64,000 nt of DNA from an uncultured archaeon (lineage in GTDB: Archaea; Aenigmatarchaeota; Aenigmatarchaeia; CG10238-14; SCSR01), in assembly GCA_964512235.1 (NCBI GenBank), contig CAZEGD010000004.1, positions 33,557 to 97,556 of the forward strand. The letters run 5' to 3'. The notes under the pieces were generated by a model, which was given only the letters and a program-made list of their open reading frames with translations, did not search any database and had not been told where the DNA came from. Of the stretch, positions 11,295 to 63,763 are shown piece by piece; position 1 is the stretch's first letter; each line of letters starts with the position of its first letter. The position numbers were made by a program, and so were the translations under genes.

Positions 11295-11522
11295 ATGACC
11301 AAACGAAAGCTGGAAGAAATAAAACGTGAGAGAAAAATGCCTATGGTAGTCTGCGCCAAGATTGATTGTATAGATGAACTGAAAGAAAAAGACCCTTATG
11401 TGATAGTTGCGGACGGTGGTAACTACAGGATGGTCTATCATTTTTCATGCTGTCCGCCAGAACTGCTCTTGGAGACTTTTGAGGAATTAAAGAAAAAGAA
11501 CCATGAATATTCTACAGAATGA
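11295..11522 (+). CDS. Hypothetical small protein
   Basis: The track ORF starts at TTG 11268 and the first ATG is at 11295. No recognisable motif. Its 3' end overlaps the convergent M29 gene. Confidence 0.3.
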   Translation: MTKRKLEEIKRERKMPMVVCAKIDCIDELKEKDPYVIVADGGNYRMVYHFSCCPPELLLETFEELKKKNHEYSTE

Positions 11523-32917: not shown

Positions 32918-32920
32918 CTC

Positions 32921-33862
32921 TCACACTCCAAGCACACCTAAGCGTAGGAGGACGCTAAACGCGCCAAATGTTATACCTACCAGTATTATGCTATGCTTAA
33001 AACCAGCCAGTATTGAACTCTCACTTATTTGGCCAGCAATCAGGCCGGAGAAGAACGATTGAATGATGCTCATGAAGAAGAAGAGCGATATGTAATACGC
33101 ACCTATTACAGTCGGATCTTCTATTCCAAATATCCATGTAGACGTAGCTTCAAAGAGGCCGCAGACTGAGCACTCAAATCCGCCACATGACATGCAGGGG
33201 TTGCTTACGCCAAGTACACTTCCCTCTACCTCTCCACCAACTTCGAATATTGGTATCATGAGATTGTTTATAGCTATGACAATAATGATGAATATCAATG
33301 ATATCGCATACATCATAAGTACGTACTGGTTGAGGAGAGACTTCCTCTCCTTTTCTGAATCTGAAAGTATATTTGAATTGTCGGCGATAGAATCCATCGT
33401 AGCTACGAGATCGCCTCCCGAAACCCTAGCCTCCCGCAGTATCCTTGCTGATGTGAAAAGCCTCTTGCTGCTCCTGACACGGTCTGAGAACTGGCTAAGC
33501 ACTTCGTCTATTGGTAGACCCCAACTCAACTGGTTGCTCATCTTTTCCACTTCATCCGACAATTTACCATAGTCTATCCCGCTAGCCATTGTTATGGCCT
33601 TATGGAGTGGCATACCAGATCGCAGCGCTTCTATAATGTCCCTAAGAAAAAGAGGCAAACGGTCTTCCATTTCCCTTATTCTCCTATACTTTTCGTAACG
33701 TATGAGAAATTGTGGAATGGCTATGATAAGCGCGGCGAGGATTACGGCATTGCCAATAATGCCAACATCTCCAATTAGCATGCCTATAATGATAAAGATT
33801 GCAGCTACCGCTATGGAGATTAGGAGAATCTTCCACCCACCAACTAATCTTAGATCAACCAT
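32921..33862 (-). CDS. T2SS-F domain membrane platform protein (TadC-like)
   Basis: LPLFLRDIIEALRSGMPLHKAI and LSQFSD..LFTSARILREA..GGDL are T2SSF features, with TM helices at both ends. ATG 33862 lies directly after the upstream stop. Confidence 0.75.
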   Translation of the reverse strand: MVDLRLVGGWKILLISIAVAAIFIIIGMLIGDVGIIGNAVILAALIIAIPQFLIRYEKYRRIREMEDRLPLFLRDIIEALRSGMPLHKAITMASGIDYGKLSDEVEKMSNQLSWGLPIDEVLSQFSDRVRSSKRLFTSARILREARVSGGDLVATMDSIADNSNILSDSEKERKSLLNQYVLMMYAISLIFIIIVIAINNLMIPIFEVGGEVEGSVLGVSNPCMSCGGFECSVCGLFEATSTWIFGIEDPTVIGAYYISLFFFMSIIQSFFSGLIAGQISESSILAGFKHSIILVGITFGAFSVLLRLGVLGV

Positions 33863-33863
33863 C

Positions 33864-34733
33864 TTACTCACCAGTCGGAGATATAGACCTTATCAAAAAA
33901 ATGAATAACGTAGATATCAATGGCAAAAAGACAAAGATTAGAAAGAACTGTAATAATATTGTGTCACTCCCACCACCACCTAAGCCCGACATTATTGCAG
34001 TCAAGATTGTAAAGAATATCGCACCAAGCACGATTGTAGTGAGGTATACCTCTATGTATACAGTGAGCTGGTGAGAGAACTCATAGAGCTTCCTTCTATA
34101 TTCATTCATGTAGCTTCTAGCCTTCTCTTTCAGATACATGTTTACATCACCGCCTGATCTCATAGTGGAGAGCATGCCCCAAAGCAGCTCTCTGAAGTTC
34201 TTTGATGTGGCCCTGTCCACTGCCCGTTCAAGCGCGGTGTTTATATCTATGCCAAACATATCCACGTCGTTTGTAATTGCCTCGATTTCTTTGGTTATCT
34301 GGCCATATTCGCTGAACTTTGCAAAGAGTTTGAATATCTTGTCAATCGAGAGCTTAGTGCTTGCCACTGTTGAAAGATAGAGTGATGCAAACGGCAGATA
34401 GTTGTCCACATCCTTGCCCTTCTGCGATATTATCGTCTGTGGATAGTATGTAAAAAGAAAAAATGCACCCACTGCGGCTAAGATGGAAAGCGTAAATGCA
34501 GTGATAAGACTGAATATGACCGTCTTGATTAAAAGAGCTAATACAAGCGACAGGATAGGAAGAGCGACTATGAAGGTTATCATACTTGCCAAGAGCGCCA
34601 TGCTCAAAAATTCCTGCAGAGATATTTTCATCTTTGCCTTTTTGATATTGACTTTCAATTCTGAGAAGTGCGGTGCAATATTTTCTATATGTTCTCCAAA
34701 AATCCTATAAGCAAGTCTTCTGTAAGATCCCAT
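33864..34733 (-). CDS. T2SS-F domain membrane platform protein (TadB-like)
   Basis: LPFASLYLSTVASTKLSIDKIFKLFA...ALERAVDRATSKNFRELLWGMLSTMRSGGD, with flanking TM helices. Start set to ATG 34733. Confidence 0.7.
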   Translation of the reverse strand: MGSYRRLAYRIFGEHIENIAPHFSELKVNIKKAKMKISLQEFLSMALLASMITFIVALPILSLVLALLIKTVIFSLITAFTLSILAAVGAFFLFTYYPQTIISQKGKDVDNYLPFASLYLSTVASTKLSIDKIFKLFAKFSEYGQITKEIEAITNDVDMFGIDINTALERAVDRATSKNFRELLWGMLSTMRSGGDVNMYLKEKARSYMNEYRRKLYEFSHQLTVYIEVYLTTIVLGAIFFTILTAIMSGLGGGGSDTILLQFFLIFVFLPLISTLFIFLIRSISPTGE

Positions 34734-34783
34734 CACATGCACCAGTTATAAGTTTGATAAACTCAAACAAACATTCTTTATTG

Positions 34784-36544
34784 TCAATCCAGCATTGCTG
34801 CCAATGTTTCTTGCGGATTGGTGTAATAAGCATTGATAACTTTGCTTACGTCAATATAGTTGTTTATATTGTTTTCCTTCATCCACTTCATTACTAGCAT
34901 CCTTCTTTCCAATTCGTCTATAACATCCTTCTCTTTTAAGCCACCCTGATCAGCTACCTTTTTCAGCGCTATGCTCTTACCGACAACATCAAACTTGTCA
35001 GTGGTTGAGTTCCATCTGAATACTGTATTGACTATTGGCTTGCCTGCTTTCGAATCGTATTTTATCATCTCAGTTATTTCTGTCACCCGGCGGATAAATT
35101 TCCCCCTATACCTCATCCTGCCGAGGAATACAATTAAATCTAGACTTCCAAGGAGAGTAGGCGGAAGGCTTATCGGCGGCGTAGTCAACCTGTCCATAAG
35201 TTTTGGTATGTTTTCAGCGTGTATAGTCGCTAGAGACGGGTGGCCAGTAGCCATCTGCTGGAAGAGTATGTAGGCTTCCGGGCCGCGCACTTCACCAACT
35301 ATGATGTAATCCGGTCTCTGCCTCAAGCTCTCTTTCAGTAGATCGAATAAATCAACCTCACCCCTCTTTTCTCCCTTGCCTATGGAAACTCTCGCTACAG
35401 TAGGCACCCAGTGTGGATGTGGCAATCGTAGCTCAGCTGTATCCTCCATGCTAATTATCTTTTTGTCCGGGCGGATGAAGAGTGAAAGGACGTTGAGCAG
35501 AGTAGTCTTGCCAGAGGCCGTACCGCCTGGGACGAGTATGCTTTTCCCATTATCTACCATAAACCACAAAAATGCCGCAGTCTTTATGTCTAGAGTGTTG
35601 TAGTGCATGAGATGCGTGGGTGTAAGTGGAGTTTTAGTGAACTTTCTTATTGTGAAGTTGCTGCCTCGTCTTGCAATGTCTGTGGCAAGTGTAGCCTGTA
35701 GCCTGCTGCCATCGGGCAGTGACCCATCTATAAGCGGTGTTGCGACTGAAATTGACTTGCCGCAAAGCTGTGAAAGCCTTGTAACAAAAGAATCGAGTTC
35801 TTCCATTTCTTTGAAGACCACATTTGTCATCACTGAAGCAACCTTTGGCTCGCGATGGAATATAAAGACTGGTATGCCAACACCATCACAGCTTATATCC
35901 TCTATGTTCGGGTCCTGCATAATCGGTTCTATCCTGCCGAGACCGATGAAATCACGTTCTATGTAATATTGAATTATCTGTTTCTCAGCTCTACTCACTT
36001 GGAGCCCAAAATATTCTACAATTTCCCTTATCTGCTTTTGCAGGTAATCTCTCACTTCAATTTTTTTCAATTTTGAAAAATCCACATCCAACCTTTGCTC
36101 AAGAAGCTCCTTTATCTTTGTAATCATACTTGAAAGCTTCTTTGTGAGGTGTGGCTCGGTTACTTGATAGACATAACCATACCGGTTAGGGTCCCAGAAG
36201 ATCTTTGCGTAGGCATATACAGGCTCATTCTTTTTCGGTTTAGGCGGTATAAGCGGATAAGCACCAGAGTATATTTCCTTCTCGATTTTTGATTTGATTT
36301 TTGAAACTCTTACCCTTCGTTTTTTGAACTCCGGTATTTCAAATCCCTCTAGTTCTGCTTTTAGTTCTGCCTCTTTTTTCTTGTCCTCTGGTTCTATGAG
36401 TCTAAGTGCACCCGTTACTTCAATTGGTCCCCTTTGTTTGACTGGAATTAGTTGCCCAGCTTTCACAGGCAAATCTTCCTCCCCAGACATCAATGACTTG
36501 TACCCAAGGACCAACCTCTTCACAACTCTAGTTCCCACATTCAT
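34784..36544 (-). CDS. Type II/IV secretion-family ATPase (FlaI/TadA/VirB11-like)
   Basis: Walker A PGGTASGKTTLLNVL, IISMEDTAEL, DYIIVGEVRGPEA and ATGHPSLATIHA. Start set to ATG 36544. Confidence 0.9.
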   Translation of the reverse strand: MNVGTRVVKRLVLGYKSLMSGEEDLPVKAGQLIPVKQRGPIEVTGALRLIEPEDKKKEAELKAELEGFEIPEFKKRRVRVSKIKSKIEKEIYSGAYPLIPPKPKKNEPVYAYAKIFWDPNRYGYVYQVTEPHLTKKLSSMITKIKELLEQRLDVDFSKLKKIEVRDYLQKQIREIVEYFGLQVSRAEKQIIQYYIERDFIGLGRIEPIMQDPNIEDISCDGVGIPVFIFHREPKVASVMTNVVFKEMEELDSFVTRLSQLCGKSISVATPLIDGSLPDGSRLQATLATDIARRGSNFTIRKFTKTPLTPTHLMHYNTLDIKTAAFLWFMVDNGKSILVPGGTASGKTTLLNVLSLFIRPDKKIISMEDTAELRLPHPHWVPTVARVSIGKGEKRGEVDLFDLLKESLRQRPDYIIVGEVRGPEAYILFQQMATGHPSLATIHAENIPKLMDRLTTPPISLPPTLLGSLDLIVFLGRMRYRGKFIRRVTEITEMIKYDSKAGKPIVNTVFRWNSTTDKFDVVGKSIALKKVADQGGLKEKDVIDELERRMLVMKWMKENNINNYIDVSKVINAYYTNPQETLAAMLD

Positions 36545-36643
36545 TATATACACCACTTTTCATAGCCAATACCCTAGCTTCACCTATCTATAATTTATTT
36601 TGGGGTTTATTTAGGATTAAATTTAATGATTATCGACGAGGTT

Positions 36644-37087
36644 TTAATTTTTTGACGAAAGATTCAGTTCATTCCGACTTTTGTCATAAATTAAGCTCAT
36701 CGTTATTATGGAGGGTGCACTGCCATCAAGCTGCAGCGACTCGTTTAGGTCGTGCAGTGACGATGTGAACGTCCTGAATTTGGGCGCTGTTGAAGTCTCT
36801 ATACCTTCGCTGCTAAAGACCACTTCTGTGAAATAGCCGGCGGATATGTTGAAGATGTTAACTTTGCTTTCGATTACATCGCATTCCATGCATCCTACAG
36901 AGGATACAGCCGTAGAAGTCAAATAACTGCTTGTAAGCTTCAATGAAGCAATTGCAACATCCCCTCTAAATATATCGCTACGCATCTTGAATAGTGAGCC
37001 CACTCCAATGAATACTCCAAACCCGATTAGGAAAAACAATACGAACTGAATTATTACAGATTGCGCTTTAGACCTCTTTTTAAACAT
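36644..37087 (-). CDS. Prepilin-like protein (class III signal peptide)
   Basis: MFKKRSKAQ|SVIIQFVLFFLIGFGVFIGVG. The ATG is adjacent to the upstream stop. Confidence 0.6.
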   Translation of the reverse strand: MFKKRSKAQSVIIQFVLFFLIGFGVFIGVGSLFKMRSDIFRGDVAIASLKLTSSYLTSTAVSSVGCMECDVIESKVNIFNISAGYFTEVVFSSEGIETSTAPKFRTFTSSLHDLNESLQLDGSAPSIITMSLIYDKSRNELNLSSKN

Positions 37088-37747
37088 CTACTCAAAAAGA
37101 ATTTTCACTTCTGTGGTAATTAATCTTTTGCTGCCTTGCGTTATAGTTTGTACATCGCCTCGGCTGATTCTTATGGATTTTCCTGTAGAAATCAGAGGAC
37201 CGCCCTCCCGCCTGACAAGATTTATCTTATAGCCTCTTGTCCCGCTACTTTCATCTATCTCTCTAAACCACATCCTATACGTTATATTATAATTTACCCC
37301 AGTGGAGTCCGCACGCGCACAGACAACACTTCCCTCATCTATTCCTAGAACACCAATTTCAGGAGGGCATGTCCCTCCATCCGTAAACGATATCCAATCC
37401 ATATCCACACCTATGTTAGACACCTTAGAAGCTATCATAAACTCTATGGAATTATTCTCCTCTCCACTACCATCATATTCATTCAGCGTCCACAATCCAT
37501 CTATGTTGGAATAAAAAGTCTTCTCCCCACCGTTGTTCGCCACGTCTTCAATCATTCTAGGCAGGGAATTCACATTGGTTCCATCAAAATAGCTGTCCAT
37601 CCTGTCTACAACAGTCCGTCCTTGCTGCTTCTCTATAAGGGGAATCCCCCACATGTATGCCGTACCGACTAGGCCTATGGCTATGACTACGAGTATAACG
37701 GCTGAAATGATGTCACCTTGTCCCTTTCTACCGGCGAACATACTCAT
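37088..37747 (-). CDS. Prepilin-like protein (class III signal peptide)
   Basis: MSMFAGRKGQ|GDIISAVILVVIAIGLVGTAYMW. First gene of the pilus-like cluster. Confidence 0.65.
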   Translation of the reverse strand: MSMFAGRKGQGDIISAVILVVIAIGLVGTAYMWGIPLIEKQQGRTVVDRMDSYFDGTNVNSLPRMIEDVANNGGEKTFYSNIDGLWTLNEYDGSGEENNSIEFMIASKVSNIGVDMDWISFTDGGTCPPEIGVLGIDEGSVVCARADSTGVNYNITYRMWFREIDESSGTRGYKINLVRREGGPLISTGKSIRISRGDVQTITQGSKRLITTEVKILFE

Positions 37748-38979: not shown

Positions 38980-40626
38980 TTAGTATTCAGGCATTCCGCC
39001 CGGAGGCATCGGTGGCATCCCACCTCTGTTGAGCTTGCTTGCTGAAATGATATCATCTATTCTAAGTATCATTTCTGCAGCCTCGGAAGCAGAAGTTATT
39101 GCTTGAGTCTTTACTTTCAATGGCTCAATAACGCCGAAGATGTTTGCATCTTCGACTCTACCTTTTTCTATGTTTATCCCGGTTGTAGCCTTACCCTGGT
39201 CGTGCATAGCTCTCAATTCGACTAAAATATCTATAGGATCAAGACCAGCATTCTCTGCAAGCGCACGCGGCACGATTTCAATCGCGTCTGCAAACCCAAG
39301 TACTGCAAGCTGCTCGCGACCGGAGAACTTCTCTGCAAACTTTCTAAGTCTGCGTGCGACTTCTGCTTCAGGCGCACCTGCACCTGCAACAACTTTACCA
39401 ACAACTATAGCACTTGCCACTGCACCCACTGCATCCTCCACGCTTCTATCTACTTCATCAACAACATGATCAGTGCTGCCACGGACGAGGATAGTCACTG
39501 CTTTCGGGTCTTTACAATCACGGACAAAAAGCATTGATTCACCGCCCACTTTCTTTTCCTCTACGACTTTGGCAAAGCCCAAATCCTCTGGGCTTAAATC
39601 ATCCAAGCTCGTAACAATGCGTCCGCCTGTTGCTTTGGAAAGCTTTTCCATGTCAGACTTCTTCACTCTACGAGCAGCAATTACGCCACGCTTTGCCAGA
39701 TAATGTTGGGCTACATCGTCAATTCCCTTCTGGCATAGCAGCACGTTTGCACCGCTTGATGTAACCTTCTCTACCATATTTTTGAGCATCTTCTGCTCTT
39801 GTTCTACGAATGCCTGTATCTGGTCCGGAGCTGTGATGCGTATCTGCGCGTCCGTTTCCGTTTCCTTCACTTCCAATGCAGCATCCACCAGAGCAATCTT
39901 CGCATCTTCAATCTTTTTCTCCATTCCAGGATGGACGATTTCCTTGTCAATAACTATACCCCTTATCAGCTCAGTTTGTTCGGCAGAGCCGCCATGTTTC
40001 TTCTCACGCTTTATGTCTTCAGTATCAACAACAACTTTGCCGTTTTCAGTCCTTGCAACCGCTTTCACAGCCTTAACTACTATGTCAGCAATCGTTGGCG
40101 ATGCACGCTCCATGCTTTTGCCGGACATCGATGTAAGTGCAATCTTCATGAGCAATTCTTCATCTTCGACCGTGACAGGCTGTGCAATCTCATCCAGAAT
40201 CTTTAGTGCTTCCTCTTTTGCAATCCTAAAACCGCGAGTGATGACTGTAGGATGTATCTCTTGATCGAGCAAGTCCTCTGCTTCTTTCAATAAGGCACCG
40301 GCTACTATTACTGCTGTAGTAGTGCCATCCCCCACTTCCTCATTCTGCGTCTTCGCAACTTCAACCATCATCTTCGCAGCAGGATGCTCAATCTCCATTT
40401 CCTCAAGAATTGTAACCCCGTCATTAGTTATAACAATATCGCCTATGCTGTCCACGAGCATCTTGTCCATTCCCTTCGGGCCAAGAGTAGTCTTTACAGC
40501 GTCTGCCACTGCCTTTGCAGCAGCAATATTCTGCTTTTGTGCACCTTTTCCAGTCTGCCTGAATGTGCCCTCTGGCAGTATCAATACAGGCTGTCCGCCC
40601 ATTTGTCCGATTGCAGCTTGAACCAT
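38980..40626 (-). CDS. ths: Thermosome subunit (group II chaperonin)
   Basis: [39 protein letters not shown], and a C-terminal [14 protein letters not shown] tail. ATG 40626 is preceded by GGAGGT; the track start is GTG 40641. Confidence 0.95.
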
Positions 40627-40659
40627 TTTACCAACCTCCACTAATCAGTTTTATAATGT

Positions 40660-40676
40660 ATGTGTATGTGGGTATA
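40660..40676. promoter_or_regulatory. 17-nt motif ATGTGTATGTGGGTATA next to a TATA-like TTATAA; an identical copy lies at 45737-45753
   Basis: Exact 17-mer found by eye in two intergenic promoter regions: upstream of the thermosome, and in the regulator/NUDIX gap. Confidence 0.3.
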
Positions 40677-40696
40677 CAAGTATTTAAAGGTTTTGG

Positions 40697-40788
40697 AAAG
40701 GGATTCTGTCGCAAGTTCGGGTCATAGCTGAGAATGTCTAATTCGGGTGATGAAAGACCAACTGAAAATGCGACAGAATCCGCCCTTT
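40697..40788. repeat. Hairpin / MITE-like element with 13-bp perfect terminal inverted repeats GGATTCTGTCGCA...TGCGACAGAATCC
   Basis: IR arms at 40701-40713 and 40769-40781, flanked by AAAGGG / CCCTTT. The arm resembles the IS6-family IR consensus GGTTCTGTTGCAAA as I recall it. Confidence 0.5.
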
Positions 40789-40866
40789 AATAAGAAAAAA
40801 CGATATTTATAAATATGGGAAATCCTATGAAGAAATACTTCTTTAATTGATTAAGTTGTGAAAAAT

Positions 40867-41208
40867 ATGGCTAAGAAAAAAATTAGAAGAATGAAGGTTA
40901 GAGGGAAAAAAGTAAAAAGAAAAGAAGTCAGAAGAGAAGAAATTATAGAACTAAGAGAAAAAACCAAATTGAGTAATACAAGTATTGTGGAACTATTAAA
41001 CGAAAATTTTATAAAAAAATTAAAATCGTTGAAAAATGAAGCGATAGTGCCCATATCTCTTATTTTATTTGGGGGAACAAATAAAAAAATGGCGATTATG
41101 TTACTATCTCACGAAAGCCCAAAAGATTATAAGAAAAAAATACTTAGTATTAGTTCTTCAGATGAGACGTTTTTGGAAAAGATTAAAAATATAATTAAAA
41201 ATATGTGA
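40867..41208 (+). CDS. Hypothetical Lys-rich protein in the AT-rich island
   Basis: MAKKKIRRMKVRGKKVKRKEVRREE.. Start set to ATG 40867; the track start is GTG 40858. No motif recognised. Confidence 0.4.
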   Translation: MAKKKIRRMKVRGKKVKRKEVRREEIIELREKTKLSNTSIVELLNENFIKKLKSLKNEAIVPISLILFGGTNKKMAIMLLSHESPKDYKKKILSISSSDETFLEKIKNIIKNM

Positions 41209-41594
41209 TTGGTATGCTTCAACATAAAACTGCAACTGAAATAATTAAAGCTACAACTAAAAGAATTGAAAACAGGGAAGTATTTGTAACTTATGATGAT
41301 TTATTAATACCAGTATCTTTTGAAAGAAAGATGCAAGATTTAGAAGATGAACTTGGATTATTAAAAAAAGAGATTAGAGAAATTAAAAAGAGTGAAGTAA
41401 CTCTTTTGATTCGGACAATAAATGATAACATGGCTGAAATTGAAATAAAAAGATTTATTAAGTTAAAGAAAAAAGAAGGTATTTCTTCTATTGATGATTT
41501 TGAAATTATGGAAAGATTAAAATTGCCTATTGAACAAATTGATAAAGTTCTCGAAAAATTTGAAAGAACAGGGATTATTCGTGAAAGAAGATGA
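41205..41594 (+). CDS. Hypothetical protein with a possible C-terminal winged-helix domain
   Basis: The GTG start overlaps the upstream stop (ATGTGA); ATG 41214 is an alternative. The C-terminus ISSIDDFEIMERLKLPIEQIDKVLEKFERTGIIRE is wHTH-like. Confidence 0.4.
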   Translation: MIGMLQHKTATEIIKATTKRIENREVFVTYDDLLIPVSFERKMQDLEDELGLLKKEIREIKKSEVTLLIRTINDNMAEIEIKRFIKLKKKEGISSIDDFEIMERLKLPIEQIDKVLEKFERTGIIRERR

Positions 41595-41811
41595 ACTTAA
41601 ACCTGGAACATACGATAACAAAATCGTTTTTAGAATTGATAAAAGTCGGTGGATAAGGATATGTGAAGTTATTAGTGATAAGATTTTATTAAAGGCTAAC
41701 AGAATTGGAAAACAACATGTTGTTCCTGATACACACAAAGATAAAACACGACAAGTTGACGCTGAAGGATTTGTAAGAATTAGACCGAAAAGAATTTGGG
41801 ATATAAAATAA
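41530..41811 (+). CDS. Hypothetical protein, start uncertain
   Basis: The 93-aa ORF overlaps the previous gene by 65 nt in another frame. In-frame GTG near 41579 (position not verified) would avoid most of the overlap. Confidence 0.3.
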   Translation: MNKLIKFSKNLKEQGLFVKEDELKPGTYDNKIVFRIDKSRWIRICEVISDKILLKANRIGKQHVVPDTHKDKTRQVDAEGFVRIRPKRIWDIK

Positions 41812-41952
41812 TTATTTTTTAATCTCTTTTTTTAATAATTGTTCAATCAATTCAGAAAGATTCACACCCTTTCTAATGGCATAAATCTTAGCTTCCTTCC
41901 ATAATTTCGGGTCTATCTTTATGCTTGTAGTTTGTCTTGTCACAATTACCAC
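41812..41952 (-). CDS. 46-aa ribbon-helix-helix (CopG/Arc-like) protein
   Basis: Own translation from GTG 41952: VVIVTRQTTSIKIDPKLWKEAKIYAIRKGVNLSELIEQLLKKEIKK. It shows a beta-strand then helix-helix pattern. Divergent from the transposase gene. Confidence 0.5.
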   Translation of the reverse strand: MVIVTRQTTSIKIDPKLWKEAKIYAIRKGVNLSELIEQLLKKEIKK

Positions 41953-42065
41953 TATATTTTATCTATTTTGAGTAGTATATAAAGATATAATATTCTACTA
42001 CGCATATTCCACAATACAATAATATTTATATACTACGAGTATTATATAATACATAGGTAATAAGA

Positions 42066-43199
42066 ATGGATAACAGAGAAATTCGTGGCTATTCCATACT
42101 TGCGAAAGGTGATACGCCACAAGCAATCAGCAAAGAAGAGTTTTTAGTTCCTTCGCAATCAAGCGATAAAAAATATAAGGTTACTCACATAGAAGGTTGG
42201 ACTTGCGAATGCAAAGATTTTAAATATAGAAAACAAACCTGTAAGCACATTCATTCAATCCGATTCTGGTTGAAGCTTAGAGATGGTGTAAGTTCAAATG
42301 AGCTAATGGAACTTGAAAATGATATAGAAGGCACTAATAGTTGTCCTAATTGCAATTCGCTGAACATAGTGAAAAATGGCAGTCGAAAGACTAACGCTGG
42401 AATTAGGCAAAGATACCTATGCAAAGATTGTAAAAGCCGATTTGTTTTAGACCCGATAAAATATGTCAAAGGTAATGGCAAGATAGTGACTTTGACTATG
42501 GATTTATATTTCAAAGGTCTTAGTCTGCGAAACATAACTGATACGATTTATCAATTCTATGGATTGAAGCTACACCACGAAACGATAAGAAGATGGATAT
42601 TGAAGTTTTCTCAAAAGTGCAAGGAATATACAGACAAACTTAAACCAGAGGTTTCTAAGAAGTGGCACGCAGACGAGATGATGATGAAAGTGAAAAAAGA
42701 TAAAAAATGGGTTTGGTTGTGGAATGTGATTGACAGCGAGACAAGATTTCTGCTTACGCAGAGCGTAACCAAAAACAGAAAGGTAAAAGACGCAACAGAA
42801 CTTTTTAACAAAGCAAAAGAGCGTGCTGATGGTAGACCAAGCTGGTTGGTAACTGATGGATTACAAACATACAGAAAGGCATTCACTAAGGCGTTTTACA
42901 AAAGAAAAGGTTTCAGACCAGAGCACATACGAGGTAAAAAATTCAAGGATAAGGTAAACAACAATATCGTAGAGCGTATGCAAGGCAGTATCCGAGACCG
43001 TGAGAAAGTTATGCGTGCTCTCGGCTCAGTTGATACAGCAAGTAGAATGATGGACGGTTGGCAAGTGTATTATAATTTTATACGACCACATCAGGCTCTA
43101 AATGGATTGACACCAAGCCAAGTTGCAGAGATAGATTTGAATTTGGGTAGGAATAGATGGTTGAGTTTGGTAAGAAAAAGTGTAAACAACAAAGTCTAA
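42066..43199 (+). mobile_element. IS6-family DDE transposase gene with N-terminal SWIM finger and zinc ribbon
   Basis: SWIM motif WTCECKDFKYRKQTCKHIH; ribbon CPNCNS..x20..CKDCKS; HTH LYFKGLSLRNITDTIYQFYGLKLHHETIRRW. DDE triad in WHADEMMMKV, LVTDGLQTY and NNIVERMQGSIRDRE, followed by YYNFIRPHQAL. Confidence 0.8.
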
Positions 43200-43209
43200 T
43201 CCGTAAATT

Positions 43210-43716
43210 TTACGAAGATAATGCTTTTATAGAATTCTCTCCCAGATTTCCAAATTCATCACATACTACTGGTATATGGAGTTTTACTTCTACTCCTGTT
43301 TCTTGACTTCTAGCTGAAACTTTCACTATTCCAATTATGTTCGGTTGTCCATCAAGATTCGACAAGTCTTTAGCTACAGGCAAGATAGAATTGAAATGTT
43401 CCCCTCCGTATATGCTAGTAGTATAGACATCAACTATCCACTGCTCTTTTAGATATTCTGCTGACTCGTTTACCGAATCAAATGATTTAAGTTCGACTAA
43501 TCTGTAGTTCATACTAATAATAGCGACCTTTGACGCTACATCTAATCTATTCTCTATTGTGTCCTTACATTTTTGTTCATATTGGTTTAAGTTCCGAAAT
43601 TGGAAAGAAATGCCAGATAGAATATCAAAAAGATTGCCCACTATACTCGGGTTGTAGTATAGAGTAAGTCCAGCTATTACCACGACTATAAGCACCACAA
43701 CAAACACTTTTCTCAT
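43210..43716 (-). CDS. Hypothetical N-terminally anchored protein
   Basis: 168 aa. MRKVFVVVLIVVVIAGLTLYY signal/anchor. No motif recognised. Confidence 0.5.
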   Translation of the reverse strand: MRKVFVVVLIVVVIAGLTLYYNPSIVGNLFDILSGISFQFRNLNQYEQKCKDTIENRLDVASKVAIISMNYRLVELKSFDSVNESAEYLKEQWIVDVYTTSIYGGEHFNSILPVAKDLSNLDGQPNIIGIVKVSARSQETGVEVKLHIPVVCDEFGNLGENSIKALSS

Positions 43717-43763
43717 AATCTAGATACTACCCATATCCAAATTTAAGCGTTTTGAATTACCCT

Positions 43764-43857
43764 TCACCCGAATGCGACACCAAGAAAAATCACCCGAGTT
43801 TGTGGACAAAACCTGGAAAGGGGTTCTGTGTAACTATCGGTTGAAATAATAGAATCC
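43764..43857. repeat. Cluster of degenerate copies of the IS6-like inverted-repeat and TTCGGGT motifs
   Basis: 43764-43781 TCACCCGAATGCGACACC is the reverse complement of TGTCGCA..TTCGGGTGA at 40707-40724. 43814-43834 TGGAAAGGGGTTCTGTGTAAC matches 40694-40713. 43851-43857 is AGAATCC. Confidence 0.4.
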
Positions 43858-43927
43858 TTCGGGTTGTCTAAAACGGTTGATTTGGTTATAGTAAAGCTTA
43901 ATTATACACAAAATCCGTAATCTGATT

Positions 43928-44362
43928 ATGGGTAAGGATGTTAAAATAACAGACTTCTTGAAAGTCTTCTTTCCATTCACAGCATTTCTAATGATGGCGA
44001 CTCTAACGGTTGGTTATTATCTCTTGAATGTCTGCGTTCAAAAGCCAGACATATTTTCTGAGACTCTCTGTCAGACTTCACAGTCATTCTTCGCCAACAC
44101 AGTAAAATTAGTCTTTTATGAGATGACATTTATCAGTTGCTCTATATTCTTTTACTTATTTTCCTTTTTTCCATTTGTTACAAGAAGGATTTCAAAATAT
44201 TCACAAGTCTTTTCACTGTTCTTTCTTTTTATGTCATTGTTTCTTATTGTAGCTCCATTTTTTGTCCAAGTAGTTCCAATCCCCTATAATTTGTTACTAG
44301 CATTTTCTGTAATTTTTGATATCATTCTAATTTATGGAATCTATAAGAGAATAGAAAACTGA
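43928..44362 (+). CDS. Hypothetical polytopic membrane protein
   Basis: 144 aa with 4 hydrophobic segments and an ATG start. Confidence 0.5.
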   Translation: MGKDVKITDFLKVFFPFTAFLMMATLTVGYYLLNVCVQKPDIFSETLCQTSQSFFANTVKLVFYEMTFISCSIFFYLFSFFPFVTRRISKYSQVFSLFFLFMSLFLIVAPFFVQVVPIPYNLLLAFSVIFDIILIYGIYKRIEN

Positions 44363-46245: not shown

Positions 46246-46371
46246 CGGGCCATTAGCTCAGTTTGGTTAGAGCGCTAGCAGACTAAGCTCTGACGCAAGT
46301 CTTATAAGGCAGCTGAGCGTTCAGCACTGGCGTAAAAACTAGTGGTCGCCGGTTCAAATCCGGCATGGCCC
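46246..46371 (+). tRNA. tRNA with 51 extra nt in the anticodon arm; best parse is tRNA-Ile(UAU) with two introns
   Basis: Hand-folded. Acceptor GGGCCAT/ATGGCCC plus A73 (Ile-like), D arm GCTC..GAGC, T arm GCCGG-TTCAAAT-CCGGC, and anticodon stem halves CTAGC ... CTAG separated by 60 nt. 126 nt = 75 + 51. Confidence 0.7.
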
Positions 46372-46405
46372 ATTCTTTTTATCCTCAGAAATCTCAAAAA
46401 TTATT

Positions 46406-56655: not shown

Positions 56656-57048
56656 TTATGTGCAGTATACGTTTGCAACTATGCTATTCCCAGTTGGGGG
56701 TGTCAATCGATATACACAACTTCTACCACCTGATCCGTCACAGACATCTGTGAGATCTGATATTTGACCTGGCTCTATTGTCCCAGATGATGGAGCTGTA
56801 CCACTGGTAGTAGTATCAACACTAGGTGCTGTTTGGACCCAAGATATACCACCTGTAGATATGGCCACTGTTCCTATATTCCTTATTCTAAGCGTTACCG
56901 TTCCGGCAGTACAATAGTAATCTGCTATCTCTATGCCCTGAGTCCTCGTTGTAAATATCCCTGAAATGTACATATAAGCCATTCCTGCAATTGCAATAGT
57001 AATCATCAGCATCAGAATAGTCGCTATTACTGCTGATACACCTTTCAT
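56656..57048 (-). CDS. Archaeal type-IV-pilin-like protein (Pilin_N/DUF1628-type N-terminus)
   Basis: MKG|VSAVIATILMLMITIAIAGMAYMY, with AGGTGA 10 nt upstream of ATG 57048. The track ORF extends to an upstream TTG at 57123. Confidence 0.7.
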   Translation of the reverse strand: MKGVSAVIATILMLMITIAIAGMAYMYISGIFTTRTQGIEIADYYCTAGTVTLRIRNIGTVAISTGGISWVQTAPSVDTTTSGTAPSSGTIEPGQISDLTDVCDGSGGRSCVYRLTPPTGNSIVANVYCT

Positions 57049-59386: not shown

Positions 59387-60045
59387 AACAACTTTAAGGC
59401 TTCCATAAATCTATTCATTTCCGGTCCAGTCGTACTCTCTCCAACAGCTACGGCCGAGCTATTTGCTATAGCACACGAGCCAACAAAAGGCGAGCCAAAG
59501 TTCGCAGTCCCTATTCCAACTTTCACATCCAAAGCATTTTCTACAGCTTTGAGTTCCTCATCTTTAGCATCCCTATGCAACAGGCAGCCGTTATTTGTTG
59601 CAAGACCACAAGATCCTACTGTGCTCATGCCTGCTATGGTTGTACATATGGCGTCTACACCCAAACAACGCTCTATCTCATCTTTGTATTTTTCAAGCGG
59701 CTTTCCTATTACTGCACCTTTGTCATTGCATAGCACCAAGTTGCCCACTGCTGTAAATTTCGATTCAAGCACCAAGACATCCAGACCGAGCAATCTTAAA
59801 CTGTCGACTTCTTCCTTTCTTGCAATCGACGGTATGACTATGCCATTCGAATTAATGCAGCAAAACATTCCAACCAAATCAGTACGAACTATAGTGGTTT
59901 TGACAACTTTAACATCAAGTGTATCCTCTACCCTTTTCATATCTTTTTCAGAAATCACATTACCAAGAATGCATAGCTTTTCTGACGACCGTCCAAACAA
60001 TCCTATGTTATGGTCACCGTAGAAATTAAGTTGAATTATGCGCAT
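59383..60045 (-). CDS. eif6: Translation initiation factor aIF6
   Basis: 220 aa with the pentein repeat pattern: NIGLFG.., [31 protein letters not shown]. Confidence 0.9.
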
Positions 60046-60064
60046 CGCATTACCTTCTACTCAT

Positions 60065-60376
60065 TTATTCCATCAATTCTGCCCTAATAATGTCACCTTC
60101 TTTAATTACTTTGACACGCAGTTTTGTAGCCGGTTTTTGTATACCTCTAGACCACAACTTTTCATTCAATCCTTTGCCGATTACTATCTTATCTGCTCGA
60201 GTTTTTTTCTCTAAAAGTCTACGTAGAATGTTTGCAGCGTCTTTAGTCCTTCTCCAATGAGGCTTTCTCGTCAGAATCTCTCTCAGATTTATGGTTATGA
60301 CTCTTTCTTCACCAGTTGCAGCCTTGGTCTTTGCTTCTTTTTTCTCTGCGGCCTTCTTTGTTTTTTCATCTGCCAT
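60065..60376 (-). CDS. rpl31e: Ribosomal protein L31e
   Basis: ERVITINLREILTRKPHWRRTKDAANILRRLL...LNEKLWSRGIQKP. Confidence 0.9.
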   Translation of the reverse strand: MADEKTKKAAEKKEAKTKAATGEERVITINLREILTRKPHWRRTKDAANILRRLLEKKTRADKIVIGKGLNEKLWSRGIQKPATKLRVKVIKEGDIIRAELME

Positions 60377-60398
60377 ATGTTTTAATTATGAGAAAACT

Positions 60399-60435
60399 AC
60401 TTAAATATAGTAGCACAAACTTTATAAAGATAGCT
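60399..60435 (+). promoter_or_regulatory. Conserved pilin-gene upstream block, copy 1 (TTAAATA box ... CTTTATAAAG)
   Basis: ACTTAAATATAGTAGCACAAACTTTATAAAGATAGCT directly precedes the ATG. Near-identical blocks lie at 61030-61066 and 61648-61684. Confidence 0.5.
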
Positions 60436-60909
60436 ATGATTGGAAAGAAAGGTATCAGTCCAATGATTGCAATCGTCCTGCTGATTGCTTTTACAGTGGC
60501 GGTGGGTGGCATTCTCAGCTTATGGCTGACTACTCTAACATCAACTCAGACTACTACTACGGGATCGGCAGCTGAGAAGCAGATACTATGTGCACGCAGC
60601 GTGTTGACAATAGATGAAGTGCGTTATAATGATGCAGGAGATGCAGCAAATATCACATACAGATATACATATGGAACAGAAGCTTTGTCGGATCTTAACT
60701 TCTTCTTCATAGATGAAAGCAGAAACACATACAATAGGTCATTTGCAACACTTATGACAATGGGTCCGGGGGACTCTAATACAACATCAATAGTCCTAAC
60801 AGGAATGTCAGGAAGTCTGCAGGAAGTTAGACTAGTGGCAAAATGTCAAAGCACATACCCAGTATCATCGACCTGCAAATCAGGGCAAGGTTGTATGAAT
60901 AAAGTGTAG
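60436..60909 (+). CDS. Archaeal type-IV-pilin-like protein, tandem paralog 1 (157 aa)
   Basis: MIGKKG|ISPMIAIVLLIAFTVAVGGILSLW, a Thr-rich stretch, Cys in ILCARS, and a C-terminal CQSTYPVSSTCKSGQGCM. The track ORF starts upstream at an alternative codon. Confidence 0.8.
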   Translation: MIGKKGISPMIAIVLLIAFTVAVGGILSLWLTTLTSTQTTTTGSAAEKQILCARSVLTIDEVRYNDAGDAANITYRYTYGTEALSDLNFFFIDESRNTYNRSFATLMTMGPGDSNTTSIVLTGMSGSLQEVRLVAKCQSTYPVSSTCKSGQGCMNKV

Positions 60910-60963
60910 ATTAAGGAAGTCTGAAACGTTAAAAAATGGATGTAGACTTTCTCTTTTCCCACA

Positions 60964-60972
60964 TTTTTTTTT
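60964..60972 (+). terminator. T9 tract about 55 nt after the paralog 1 stop
   Basis: Sequence ccacaTTTTTTTTTgc. Oligo-T terminator logic. Confidence 0.4.
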
Positions 60973-61029
60973 GCTAAATACAGCTCATTATTTAATTAAA
61001 TATTTATTTTCTTCTTTTCTAAAAAAGTT

Positions 61030-61066
61030 ATTTAAATACAATAGCACAAACTTTATAAAGATAGCT
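61030..61066 (+). promoter_or_regulatory. Conserved pilin-gene upstream block, copy 2
   Basis: ATTTAAATACAATAGCACAAACTTTATAAAGATAGCT directly precedes the ATG. Confidence 0.5.
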
Positions 61067-61609
61067 ATGATTGGAAAGAAAGGTATCAGTCCAATGATTG
61101 CAATCGTCCTGCTGATTGCTTTTACAGTGGCGGTGGGTGGCATTCTCAGCTTATGGCTGACTACTCTAACATCAACTCAGACTACTACTACGGGATCGGC
61201 AGCTGAGAAGCAGATACTATGTGCACGCAGCGTCCTATCAATTGAGGAAGTGACTCATTCTGTAATAGGTAGTGATAATCTTGTCAACGTTACAGTTGTA
61301 TACAAATATGGAGATGAGAATCTCTACAATTTCACTTTGACTTTTATAGATAACGCTAGAAATTCCTTTACGTTAAATCAAACCAGACTATCCGAAATAG
61401 TCGTTCAATATAACAATAGTGCAGGAGAGCAATTCAGCCCTGGGATGATGACAGTATGGAGCTTAAACCTAACAGATGCACAGTCAGGTGAGACTGGGGC
61501 AGATAGTCTAACAGGTACTTCATTACAGTCAGTAAGAGTTCGGGCACTCTGCCAAACTAATTATCCAGTATCAGGCGAGTGCAAATCAGGCCAATCTTGT
61601 ATGGCTTAA
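61067..61609 (+). CDS. Archaeal type-IV-pilin-like protein, tandem paralog 2 (180 aa)
   Basis: The first 55 aa are identical to paralog 1, the core is divergent, and the C-terminus is CQTNYPVSGECKSGQSCMA. Confidence 0.8.
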   Translation: MIGKKGISPMIAIVLLIAFTVAVGGILSLWLTTLTSTQTTTTGSAAEKQILCARSVLSIEEVTHSVIGSDNLVNVTVVYKYGDENLYNFTLTFIDNARNSFTLNQTRLSEIVVQYNNSAGEQFSPGMMTVWSLNLTDAQSGETGADSLTGTSLQSVRVRALCQTNYPVSGECKSGQSCMA

Positions 61610-61647
61610 AAAAAATTATATCGTCTTTTCTCTCTTTTGAGTAAAAT

Positions 61648-61684
61648 ACTTAAATACAATAGCACAAACTTTATAAAGATAGCT
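61648..61684 (+). promoter_or_regulatory. Conserved pilin-gene upstream block, copy 3
   Basis: ACTTAAATACAATAGCACAAACTTTATAAAGATAGCT directly precedes the ATG. Confidence 0.5.
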
Positions 61685-62170
61685 ATGATTGGAAGGAAAG
61701 GTATCAGTCCAATGATTGCAATCGTCCTGCTGATTGCTTTTACAGTAGCAGTTGGTGGTATTCTCAGCATATGGCTGACTACTCTAACATCAACTCAGAC
61801 TACTACTACGGGCTCAGCTGCTGAGAAACAGGTGCTGTGTGCACGCAGCGTTTTAGAGATCACAGAAGTATATTATGAAGGTCCACGAAATGCAAATGTC
61901 ACTGTTTCATACACATATGGTACAGAAAGCCTTAGCAACTTCAATTTCTTCTTTGTGGATGATGCAAGAAACTCTGAGAACAAAACTGTAGCTCCTTCTT
62001 CTGGTACGACGCTAACTCCAGGAGATTCAGATACATTTGCTATTACAGATTTGAGTACTTTGAGCTCTTCAGGATCATTACAATCCGTAAGGGTAATTGC
62101 AACATGCCAAGATACTTATCCAGTATCAGGCGAGTGCAAATCTGGACAGTCTTGCATGAATAAATACTAG
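61685..62170 (+). CDS. Archaeal type-IV-pilin-like protein, tandem paralog 3 (161 aa)
   Basis: MIGRKG|ISPMIAIVLLIAFTVAVGGILSIW..., with C-terminal CQDTYPVSGECKSGQSCMNKY. Confidence 0.8.
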   Translation: MIGRKGISPMIAIVLLIAFTVAVGGILSIWLTTLTSTQTTTTGSAAEKQVLCARSVLEITEVYYEGPRNANVTVSYTYGTESLSNFNFFFVDDARNSENKTVAPSSGTTLTPGDSDTFAITDLSTLSSSGSLQSVRVIATCQDTYPVSGECKSGQSCMNKY

Positions 62171-62217
62171 CAGCAACCTGTAAAGCAGTTGAAAGAACTT
62201 TTCTACGTTTTTCTCTA

Positions 62218-62226
62218 TTTTTTTTT
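62218..62226 (+). terminator. T9 tract about 50 nt after the paralog 3 stop
   Basis: Sequence ctctaTTTTTTTTTca. Oligo-T terminator logic. Confidence 0.4.
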
Positions 62227-62264
62227 CAAAATACTTAAGCCATGGTAAGAGAAACTCTATTAAG

Positions 62265-62804
62265 ATGGTAATGATTAAAATCGGTGAAAATGGCATCAGC
62301 CCAATGATCGCAACTGTCCTGCTGATTGCTTTCACAGTAGCTGTTGCTGGCATAGTCGGCTTATGGATTACAACTCTAACCAGCACACAAACAGAGACTA
62401 CGGGCTCAGCTGCTGAGAAACAGGTGCTGTGTGCACGCAGTATAATCACCATAGATGAAGTGACTTCAAAATTCAACACAACATCGGGTGGCGATTCATT
62501 TAACGTCACTGTTGTATATTCCTATGGTACAGAAGATTTGTATTATTTCAATATCACGCTTATAGATAACATTAGAAATTCCTTTACAGCAACACCTGTC
62601 AATGTGACAAACTTCAACAAAACGAATCCGTTCAGACCAGGCGATTCAAATGTCTTTAATATTAACATAGACGATAGGAACACTGTTGAAAAGACAGGTG
62701 ACTTACTAGGCACTTCCCTGTATTTAGTGAGAGTAATTGCAAAGTGCCAAACTAATTATCCAGTATCAGGCGAGTGCAAATCAGGCCAGGGATGCATGGA
62801 ATAG
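62265..62804 (+). CDS. Archaeal type-IV-pilin-like protein, tandem paralog 4 (about 179 aa)
   Basis: MVMIKIGENG|ISPMIATVLLIAFTVAVAGIVGLW..., with C-terminal CQTNYPVSGECKSGQGCME. Its upstream block differs from those of copies 1-3. Confidence 0.75.
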   Translation: MVMIKIGENGISPMIATVLLIAFTVAVAGIVGLWITTLTSTQTETTGSAAEKQVLCARSIITIDEVTSKFNTTSGGDSFNVTVVYSYGTEDLYYFNITLIDNIRNSFTATPVNVTNFNKTNPFRPGDSNVFNINIDDRNTVEKTGDLLGTSLYLVRVIAKCQTNYPVSGECKSGQGCME

Positions 62805-62830
62805 GATAAAGCAAGAAATCTTAGAAATAT

Positions 62831-63001
62831 TCAAACCTTTACCGTTGACCTTCTCCATCTCTTTTTTGTCACATTTATCCTTCTAGTTCTAGCCCGCTTT
62901 AGGCCGAACTTCTTTATGTCAGCCCATCTGGGCGCGAGGCGGACTTTCTTTATTTTTGCAAGCTTTATCTTTTTGCTTATAGTCTTCTTACCCATATTCA
63001 T
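62831..63001 (-). CDS. rpl39e: Ribosomal protein L39e
   Basis: Own translation: MNMGKKTISKKIKLAKIKKVRLAPRWADIKKFGLKRARTRRINVTKKRWRRSTVKV. Below the ORF-track cutoff. Starts right after the rrp42 stop. Confidence 0.8.
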   Translation of the reverse strand: MNMGKKTISKKIKLAKIKKVRLAPRWADIKKFGLKRARTRRINVTKKRWRRSTVKV

Positions 63002-63763
63002 CTAAACCTTTATCAATTTTCTCATTTCTTTACTCTTCTTCAATGCCATATCTATAATTGTCTCCACTTCTTTAATCGTTAGCCCACTTGAACCTTGCTT
63101 CTGTATAGCACATATTTTTCCATCATCGCGCACACCAATGCTAATCTTTGTGTCAACAACTTCTTCCTCTTGCATATTAGGGTCTAGCAGGAATTTATCG
63201 CCGATTTTACAAACAGTTATTGTTACTGGTTTCTGCGAGAGTGGCAAAGGGCCTTGAAATTCAGTAAGCACGATTTTATCGTCTTCGATTTTAGGCAGCT
63301 TAGTTGTCAACAGTGCGACTACAGAGGCAAGAGCTGCACAGTCTACCAAGTTGCCATCATTATTGATTATATGTATGTCCACTGAGACTCCCCAAACTTT
63401 CTCCTTTGGTGTTATGCAAAGTTTCTTCAAATCTATCATTTCCGATTCGCGTATGCCCCTATCTACGATACGTGCAAGCTCTACTGCGTCTTCGCCAGGC
63501 GGACCGGACTCGAAGTCAGGTGAAGCCAACGGCGTGAACTCTGCCGATACCATAAGCATACCTTCCTCAGGAGTGTCTGAGAATGGTGTGGAAGTCACCA
63601 TCTTCACACCCACAATGATTTTTGTATTCCCAAATCTTACAAGTGCAGATCCTTCAGCTTTATTAATAAAATTCGGCACAATCTCAATTTCCCTAAATTC
63701 TTCGAACTTCCTACCGTCTACTCTTCTTCCCTTTTCAATTAGCTCTAGAGCATAACTCCTCAT
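63002..63763 (-). CDS. rrp42: Exosome subunit Rrp42 (RNase PH-like, inactive)
   Basis: GRRVDGRKFEEFREIEI, AEGSALVRFGNTKIIVGVK, ESGPPGEDAVELARIVDR. Confidence 0.85.
   Translation of the reverse strand: MRSYALELIEKGRRVDGRKFEEFREIEIVPNFINKAEGSALVRFGNTKIIVGVKMVTSTPFSDTPEEGMLMVSAEFTPLASPDFESGPPGEDAVELARIVDRGIRESEMIDLKKLCITPKEKVWGVSVDIHIINNDGNLVDCAALASVVALLTTKLPKIEDDKIVLTEFQGPLPLSQKPVTITVCKIGDKFLLDPNMQEEEVVDTKISIGVRDDGKICAIQKQGSSGLTIKEVETIIDMALKKSKEMRKLIKV

Follow-up and report, generated by a model that had tools for sequence, protein, structure and literature searches.

A tandem array of four pilin-like genes from the Aenigmatarchaeota with concerted ends and long-lived cores: probable subunit isotypes of one filament

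Tandem pilin genes with nearly identical ends and divergent middles raise the question of whether the middles are hypervariable inserts that vary a cell surface or established variants of the subunit of a filament. The question is posed by four genes, here called c1 to c4, that lie head to tail on the plus strand at positions 60436-62804 of a 64,000-nucleotide stretch of an uncultured archaeon's genome (contig CAZEGD010000004.1; the whole stretch is referred to as the window). An original prediction, made from the sequence alone, had taken the array for a possible antigenic or adhesin-variation cassette. The analysis reported here indicates that c1 to c4 are probably four expressed subunit isotypes of one type IV-pilus-superfamily filament of the Aenigmatarchaeota, a DPANN lineage. 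The array is an ordinary multi-pilin family and not a rapid surface-switching system, and the locus does not amount to a new mechanism of variation. Its gene ends clearly evolve in concert, and copy-number variation at the level of whole gene units is possible.

Conserved ends, divergent middles and the predicted fold

The array comprises two short-type genes, c1 (60436-60909, 157 amino acids (aa)) and c3 (61685-62170, 161 aa), and two long-type genes, c2 (61067-61609, 180 aa) and c4 (62265-62804, 179 aa). Open reading frames (ORFs) on the opposite strand over the array were rejected as genes, being antisense readings of the conserved block. All four translations pass TIGR02537 (NCBIfam, archaellin/type IV pilin N-terminal domain), with 25.1-25.8 bits against a cut-off of 20. 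The best named match of the window's pilins is the NCBIfam UpsA model, at 21-45 bits against a cut-off of 130 and mostly over the N-terminal helix only. The leader of c1 to c3 reads M-I-G-(K/R)-K-G↓I-S-P-M-I-A (MIGKKG↓ISPM in c1; the arrow marks the predicted cleavage site) and is followed by about 25 hydrophobic residues, as in class III signal peptides. In c4 the corresponding site is the atypical GENG↓ISPM.

When the four proteins were aligned and numbered by c3, 45 of 55 columns were invariant over residues 1-55 and 13 of 41 over residues 56-96, the Y.YG.E.L...D..RN strand region. Only 2 of 34 were invariant over residues 97-130, both belonging to a conserved Pro-Gly, and 18 of 31 over residues 131-161, which include the box C-Q..YPVS..CKSGQ.CM. 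Each protein has four Cys at matching positions; in a family alignment of 111 members, two of these never vary (Cys52 and Cys141) and the other two are conserved to at least 90% (Cys151 and Cys157). Potential N-glycosylation sequons (N-x-S/T) number 3, 5, 2, and 5 in c1 to c4, respectively, at positions that differ between copies, and the only one common to all four is N(V/I)T after the first strand. The original prediction had described four same-strand genes of these lengths, with a conserved N terminus of about 55 residues, a partly conserved strand, an invariant C-terminal box, four fixed Cys and differing sequons, and all of this is borne out by the ORFs, translations and alignments. Its divergent middle is also present, but spans about 30-53 aa rather than 40-70 and holds the conserved Pro-Gly; the KKG↓ISPM site that it had read in every copy holds for c1 to c3 but not for c4.

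A promoter-like block of 37 nucleotides (nt) precedes c1 at 60399-60435 on the plus strand (ACTTAAATA...TTTATAAAGATAGCT) and is repeated before c2 (61030-61066) and c3 (61648-61684), with 34-36 of 37 positions identical among the three. It is degenerate before c4, where identity to c1 across the 260-nt repeat unit is 62%. Two A/T-rich boxes lie in each block of c1 to c3, at -35 and -15 from the ATG, and direct comparison of the upstream regions of family genes found the same two boxes at equal distance to the ATG before the first gene of arrays in other genomes. That each gene has its own two-box block supports separate promoters for c1, c2, and c3, in which the distal box may be a TATA element; in some relatives the array copies abut without a spacer and have an operon-like look. 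Oligo-T tracts serve in archaeal transcription termination, and the T9 tract after c1 (60964-60972, plus strand) is a candidate terminator of this kind. Another T9 tract follows c3, ahead of the promoter region of c4 (62218-62226, plus strand). The second is T8 in a strain variant (locus L009, about 845-852), and this homopolymer length polymorphism sits directly 5' of the promoter-like element of c4. The upstream block shared by the first three copies and both T9 tracts had been noted in the original prediction and are present as described.

AlphaFold models of c3 (pLDDT 88.4) and c2 (pLDDT 91.2), each built on the family alignment, show a helix at residues 9-53 followed by a beta sandwich, with 7-8 strands after the helix. 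Modelling had been proposed as a way of locating the variable stretch, and in both the short and the long type this stretch is placed in the same beta-sandwich scaffold; the long type differs from the short in two extra short helices and longer loops, which fall in the paralog-variable region. A fold search with the c2 model returned 8fk7 as the best PDB match (E 5e-5, 19% identical). The family profile, when compared with the PDB, matched archaeal filament subunits and again 8fk7 best (E 4e-4). Foldseek with the c3 model returned only generic antibody-like immunoglobulin (Ig)/Ig-V domains at TM 0.3-0.5 and was uninformative.

Concerted ends and separately inherited cores

Tracts of conversion or exchange between the copies lie at both ends of the genes. 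In an ungapped comparison, positions 60411-60602 of c1, which cover 25 nt 5' of the ATG and codons 1-56, are 100% identical over 192 nt to positions 61042-61233 of c2, and identity between the two genes collapses after codon 56. At the other end, 44 nt of the C-terminal Cys-box DNA of c2 (61550-61593, plus strand) are identical to 62745-62788 of c4. Synonymous divergence (dS) in the N-terminal block is 0 for c1-c2, 0.30 for c1 or c2 versus c3, 0.5 for c3 versus c4 and 0.95 for c2 versus c4, and in the Cys box it is 0.33-0.46 among c2, c3, and c4. Core dS is at least 1.7 for all pairs and saturated (about 1.9 for c1-c2). A permutation test on polymorphic sites was used to find concordant tracts, and at p <= 1e-4 it returned a run of 50 concordant sites for c1-c2, a run of 17 sites over the promoter and 5' end for c2-c3, and a run of 15 sites in the Cys box for c2-c4.

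The same pattern recurs in other genomes (related loci and proteins are denoted by the prefixes L and P). Across the seven multi-copy arrays compared, the N-terminal DNA sorts by genome without exception, and the cores sort by type. N-terminal nucleotide identity in these seven arrays is 83-100% between adjacent array-mates and 77-82% for non-adjacent pairs and c4; core-defined orthologs in different genomes share 67-82%. In a further array, L023, one pair has N-terminal DNA that is 99.3% identical and cores that are 54% identical. Purifying selection as the only cause of the identical ends is ruled out by a c1-c2 dS of 0, against 0.30 to c3 and saturated cores: constraint on the amino acids is insufficient because the synonymous sites match too. 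Recurrent gene conversion or unequal exchange between tandem copies is the simplest explanation.

The cores tell a different story from the ends. Among themselves the window's cores are 30-48% identical. The c1 core is 53-64% identical to those of P0024, P0022, and P0029, the c2 core 70% identical to that of P0007 (L010_1778), the c3 core 86% identical to that of L009/P0006 and 75% to that of L001/P0012, and the c4 core 74-77% identical to those of P0004, P0008, and P0009. The ratio of non-synonymous to synonymous divergence (dN/dS, Nei-Gojobori) between orthologous cores is 0.14 for c3 versus L001, 0.12 for c4 versus L005_1736 and 0.41 for c1 versus L005. The variable region of the c3 type can be read across 12 sequences save for two loops, and no chimeric cores were seen. 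Because orthologs elsewhere are more alike (53-86%) than neighbours in the array (30-48%), and ortholog dN/dS is low, the cores are best read from sequence comparison as stable, vertically inherited isotypes under purifying selection and not as hypervariable inserts.

Of the original prediction, the anatomy of conserved scaffold, divergent middle and near-identical flanks survives, as does recombination in the flanks, but not the variation. Near-identical flanks that recombine had been proposed, and they are seen in the tracts at both gene ends, in the 192-nt perfect repeat and in two variant contigs, L015 and L009, described below; cores that have orthologs at a dN/dS of 0.12-0.41 do not support the proposal that a hypervariable insert drives variation of antigens or adhesins. 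It had also been suggested that the case would fail if the middles turned out to be ordinarily and evenly diverged. They have diverged as paralogs under constraint ordinarily do, although not evenly along the gene. Nor was a silent-cassette layout found: all four genes have a start codon, a leader and a complete helix, and c1 to c3 have the promoter-like block.

A profile search returned 641 relatives, and an exhaustive search of the 1.84 billion representatives of a 50%-identity protein library returned 622 clusters at E <= 1e-10. Scanning GTDB with patterns drawn from the four window proteins alone found nothing, the patterns being too specific, whereas a scan seeded by the 111-sequence alignment found 60 loci. 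Every named GTDB record with a family member is Candidatus Aenigmatarchaeota, and the best-matching named relatives of the eIF2-gamma gene next to the array (67-69% identical) come from metagenome-assembled genomes of the same group. The relatives carry the JGI name 'flagellin-like protein'. A pattern-seeded search of viral contigs found no relatives and thus, within that search, gave no sign of viruses carrying pilin cassettes.

The genomic address of the family is fixed. The array is flanked on one side by S24e, S27ae, eIF6, and L31e and on the other by a small L39e-like gene, then Rrp42-Rrp41-Rrp4-SBDS-proteasome alpha, the archaeal exosome gene neighbourhood. Neighbours from this set, S24e/S27ae/eIF6/L31e to Rrp42, lie within 3 kb of 28 of the 54 GTDB loci with a full-length member, and the site of L001, L003, L005, L006, and L008 is syntenic with that of the window. 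The L39e-like gene is a basic 56-aa ORF on the minus strand (62831-63001) between the array and Rrp42, with 54-aa counterparts in L001 and L002; it resembles ribosomal protein L39e by eye and has no Pfam or NCBIfam match. In the same neighbourhood of L003, an ORF with a faint LAGLIDADG match (11001-11981) lies among proteasome and RNase P genes.

Copy number at the syntenic site ranges from 1 to 4 across species and is most often one. The commonest multi-copy form is a long-type gene followed by a short-type gene (c2-c3 in the window, and L001, L003, L008, L009, L010, and L011). By type, the order is c1-c2-c3-c4 in the window, c4'-c1'-c4'' in L005 and c2'-c3' in L001, L003, and L008, and L006 has three copies that are all c4-like.

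Two contigs bear on variation within populations. Over its 1625 bp, L015 (also L091; Ga0315543_1052589, from sample 3300031651) matches the window at 100% identity, first over 59622-60602 and then over 61042-61877. What it lacks is exactly one 631-bp unit, the c1 core, and its two parts meet within the 192-nt perfect repeat. Positions 61883-63004 recur at 100% identity in L012 (also L089), from the same sample, and 61759-62811 in L090, from another. Other samples contain identical copies of c2, c3, and c4, and c1 was not found on other contigs in the protein collection. It is plausible that L015 is a real three-copy haplotype and that c1 was recently gained or lost via the homology block. The perfect repeat exceeds the usual assembler k-mers, however, and short-read contigs break at the same repeats, and L015 may instead be an assembly collapse, which is a real alternative. 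The converse, that c1 is an assembly artefact of the window contig, is unlikely, as c1-type cores have orthologs (P0022, P0024, and P0029). The second contig, L009, has no differences from the window over 618 nt (61360-61977) and about 5.5% divergence from inside c3 onward, over a compared span of 61360-62413; its differences include a 12-nt loop indel, the T9/T8 tract before c4 and Lys in place of Asn at -2 in the cleavage site of c4. This has the pattern of an inter-strain recombination breakpoint, with a chimeric contig as the caveat.

Assembly machinery and competing explanations

What looks like a complete assembly operon for a type IV filament lies on the minus strand at 31080-37747, 25 kb upstream of the array. 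It encodes a FlaI/ArlI-like secretion ATPase (34784-36556; Pfam T2SSE E 1e-33; NCBIfam FlaI 419 bits against a cut-off of 550), the probable assembly motor judging from these matches. Two T2SSF membrane proteins (33864-34742 and 32921-33871, minus strand; Pfam E 1e-15 each) correspond to the N-terminal and the C-terminal half of the models for ArlJ and UpsF and resemble a split FlaJ/TadC-like platform. Putative pilin-like accessory genes stand on both sides, all on the minus strand: 5' of the ATPase, 37088-37747 (219 aa, RKGQ↓GDIISAV) and 36644-37087 (147 aa) have charged-then-hydrophobic N-termini, and 3' of the platform, 32387-32917 (176 aa) and 31080-32393 (437 aa) have hydrophobic N-termini after K/R-G. 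No family match was found for these four. A fifth, distant pilin-like gene (56656-57048, minus strand, 130 aa) encodes a class III signal peptide, MKG↓VSAV, and is without the C-terminal Cys box. Its product is 23% identical to c1, scores above the TIGR02537 cut-off and matches the UpsA model at E 1e-11, far below that model's cut-off; the gene is syntenic, after the eIF2-gamma gene, with counterparts in L006 and L008.

On the favoured reading, that of four isotypes of one filament, the first six or so residues of each protein would form a class III signal peptide that is cut after Gly, the 45-residue helix would enter the filament core and the Ig-like beta sandwich would form the exposed filament surface, with the C-terminal Cys box probably stapling the sandwich by disulfides. 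Helix and Cys box would have to suit a single FlaI/FlaJ-like machine and the neighbouring subunits, and would be near-identical because both must fit that machine and each other. The ends would be kept alike partly by purifying selection and partly by homologous recombination, as gene conversion or unequal exchange, which would carry the promoter along and occasionally add or remove a whole gene unit. The sandwich surfaces would then be four old, separately conserved versions, short in c1 and c3 and long in c2 and c4, and may offer different surfaces and glycosylation patterns for host or substrate attachment. The copy or mixture in use would be set by transcription and not by DNA rearrangement, such that one machine could make filaments with different surfaces, or mixed filaments.

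Several observations weigh against this reading. The label of a DUF1628-type class III pilin, given in the original prediction, stands as to TIGR02537 but not as to Pfam, where the scores for PF07790 (Pilin_N, former DUF1628), at 14.4-23.3 bits, stay under the gathering score of 25.2; a precomputed match to that family is recorded for some homologs. No prepilin peptidase was found among the 38 ORFs of the 64-kb window scanned against Pfam; a 236-aa membrane ORF at 1166-1876 was considered for this role and rejected, as it has no family match and no obvious GxGD motif. In c4, Gly is kept at -1, but Asn occupies -2, where a charged residue is normally needed and where the L009 variant has Lys (GEKG, L009 893-1041), and this site together with the degenerate promoter block may make for poor processing or expression of c4. 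The unit deletion in L015 and the mosaic in L009 would also fit a livelier turnover of cassettes than stable isotypes imply. The dN/dS comparison proposed alongside the original prediction is likewise divided: orthologous cores are constrained, yet c3 versus L009, a strain pair, gives a core dN/dS of 1.6 from a small sample of 9.2 non-synonymous and 1.8 synonymous changes plus the 12-nt indel, and exposed loops may have diversified locally to some extent. Filament assembly and the use of all four copies are, finally, inferred, as are processing of the signal peptide, the disulfides, differential expression and a role in adhesion; what the analysis shows directly is how the genes are built, their predicted fold, the orthology of the cores, the concerted ends, the synteny and the presence of assembly machinery.

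One rival is a population-level form of the original idea. The 5' blocks and the Cys-box DNA at the 3' end would serve as homology arms through which strains gain, lose or exchange whole cassettes, internally and with one another, and the differing pilin sets of a population would serve host range or escape from filament-binding viruses. The 192-nt repeat flanks the c1 core, L015 is the window without that 631-bp unit and 100% identical on both sides of it, and no other contig was found to carry c1, whereas c2, c3, and c4 recur identically in other samples; in L001, as in L015, the first gene after L31e is of the c2 type. Type order and content differ between genomes, L009 breaks from identity to about 5.5% divergence, and the tract before c4 is T9 in one strain and T8 in the other. 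Yet the L015 junction lies in a repeat longer than the usual k-mers, which keeps assembly collapse a real alternative, and the cores, among which no chimeras were seen, are kept similar from species to species by purifying selection. No inverted repeats and no recombinase gene were found at the locus, no G3+ quadruplex (G4) motif occurs on either strand of 60000-63100, the pattern-seeded search returned no relatives on viral contigs, and the turnover observed is on an evolutionary time scale. Repertoire variation is regarded as unlikely. A shade less likely still is its fuller version, in which the arms would allow cassettes to be inserted, excised and exchanged between co-existing strains, giving a shifting surface repertoire, with L015 a real haplotype and c1 a recent gain.

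An obligate heteropolymer, in which long and short subunits would co-assemble in one filament, for example in alternation, is compatible with the isotype reading and is unlikely as well, if slightly less so than repertoire variation. An adjacent long and short pair is the commonest multi-copy arrangement, identical helices would permit mixed packing, and there are precedents in the two-archaellin filament of Methanocaldococcus villosus (PMC8821640) and the two divergent archaellins of Halorubrum (PMC7349177). Most species representatives carry one copy at the syntenic site, however, which indicates that one subunit is enough in those relatives, and some arrays hold one type only, as L006 does with its three c4-like copies. 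Least probable of all is that the four genes encode archaellins of a rotating swimming filament, which would make the array a conventional archaellin family. The ATPase scores best with the FlaI model and the platform with ArlJ, and relatives bear the 'flagellin-like protein' name. The predicted helix (9-53) is long, and 30 of the 47 mature N-terminal residues are non-polar, or 64%, which falls inside the range given for archaeal flagellins (57-71%) and outside that for pilins (80-90%) (PMC10334743). The Pfam Arch_flagellin family (PF01917) is matched weakly by c3 (12.3 bits) and c4 (19.9 bits). These scores are below the gathering score of 29.5, however, with no match for c1 or c2 in the Pfam scan, and the ATPase score of 419 is below the FlaI equivalog cut-off of 550. 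No ArlH (KaiC-like) or recognisable ArlF, G, C, D, E, or X was found near the ATPase or within the window, and a survey of Aenigmarchaeota found only a subset of archaellum genes (FlaG, FlaI, and FlaJ) (PMC8407114). The 150-175 mature residues are few for an archaellin, and the closest solved structure, 8fk7, belongs to a non-supercoiling 'flagellar-like' pilus (PMC10334743).

DPANN archaea need contact with other cells, for which surface filaments are prime candidates, and we know of no characterised surface filament from the Aenigmatarchaeota. The locus provides a well-defined, lineage-specific subunit family that has a fixed genomic address and whose assembly module is clearly set apart from its surface module, concerted gene ends lying beside long-lived divergent cores. 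Four defined isotypes and their machinery are material for structural and ecological studies.

Elsewhere in the window, a low-GC patch at 40000-44000 (0.34-0.36, against about 0.42 elsewhere) contains an ORF for a DDE transposase (42066-43199; DDE_Tnp_IS240/rve), probably an insertion sequence. Rfam, run over the whole window, returned three tRNAs only and nothing in or near the array; one of the tRNAs (46247-46372) spans 126 nt, was not reported by ARAGORN and is probably an intron-containing archaeal tRNA. An ORF of 1227 aa at 14652-18335 has no Pfam match at E <= 1e-4 and may encode a large lineage-specific protein. In the 611-aa protein encoded at 6737-8572, which is unrelated to the filament operon, a PIN domain occurs together with a KH domain and a T2SSE-like ATPase segment.

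Comparison with known pilin and archaellin systems

One system for comparison is pilE/pilS of Neisseria, in which a pilin with a conserved N-terminus, a variable region and a conserved, Cys-containing C-terminus is varied by recombination between pilin copies. There, one expressed gene is accompanied by promoterless, 5'-truncated silent copies and a G4-forming initiator. Conserved ends, a divergent middle and recombination between copies are shared with the array, whose copies are, by contrast, all complete with signal peptides, without a G4, and with cores that are conserved between genomes and not reshuffled. The array thus fails each defining feature of Neisseria-type programmed antigenic variation that was tested.

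UpsA and UpsB of Sulfolobus acidocaldarius are likewise neighbouring pilin paralogs, with cleavage sites of the form K-[GA]-I-S, and the K-G↓I-S motif of the array equals the KGIS listed for UpsB (PMC4371748), but scores so far below the UpsA cut-off show that the window's pilins are not equivalogs. The flagellar-like type IV pilus of Pyrobaculum calidifontis (8fk7) is the best match by both profile and fold. Its subunit combines an Ig-like outer domain with a helix that is intermediate in both length and polarity; it is N-glycosylated and has a disulfide within the molecule (PMC10334743). It differs in coming from the Thermoproteota and in being only 19% identical, and the available text of that paper reports neither a Cys box nor a multi-isotype array for it.

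Archaellin arrays (arlB/flaB, such as ArlB1/ArlB2 of M. villosus and FlaB1/FlaB2 of Halorubrum) also consist of tandem paralogs with conserved N-termini, divergent globular domains and a long, partly polar helix, and some of their filaments are built from two paralogs (PMC8821640; PMC7349177). Archaellin paralogs are prone to duplication, with up to nine copies (PMC4858521). The window's pilins, unlike these, fail the Pfam archaellin model, are seen in a window without ArlH or motor accessory genes and lie in a ribosomal/exosome neighbourhood instead of an ATPase operon.

Although the original prediction knew of no described system with this layout, tandem archaeal major-pilin paralogs and near-identical N-termini are both documented (PMC4858521; PMC4371748). 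Archaeal major pilins are encoded outside the type IV pilus operon, as singletons or as tandem genes, and are prone to tandem duplication (PMC4858521). In Haloferax volcanii, PilA1-PilA6 are several major pilins with a near-identical hydrophobic N-terminus (H-domain) and differing C-terminal domains and sequons, encoded away from pilB/pilC; experiments have shown that each forms pili and that adhesion differs between them (PMC4371748; PMC4858521), which is the logic proposed here for the array. The array is likewise a set of paralogs that share the H-domain (45/55 columns) outside the assembly operon, 25 kb from the ATPase. It differs from Haloferax PilA (arCOG02416) in having no detectable homology to it past the helix, the related Natrinema PilA2 (8gi2) matching residues 2-48 only, at E 0.43. 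The Aenigmatarchaeota genes, moreover, are strictly tandem at one syntenic site, their products have an extra C-terminal four-Cys box and a much longer, partly polar helix, and their 5' block, promoter included, is homogenised at the DNA level.

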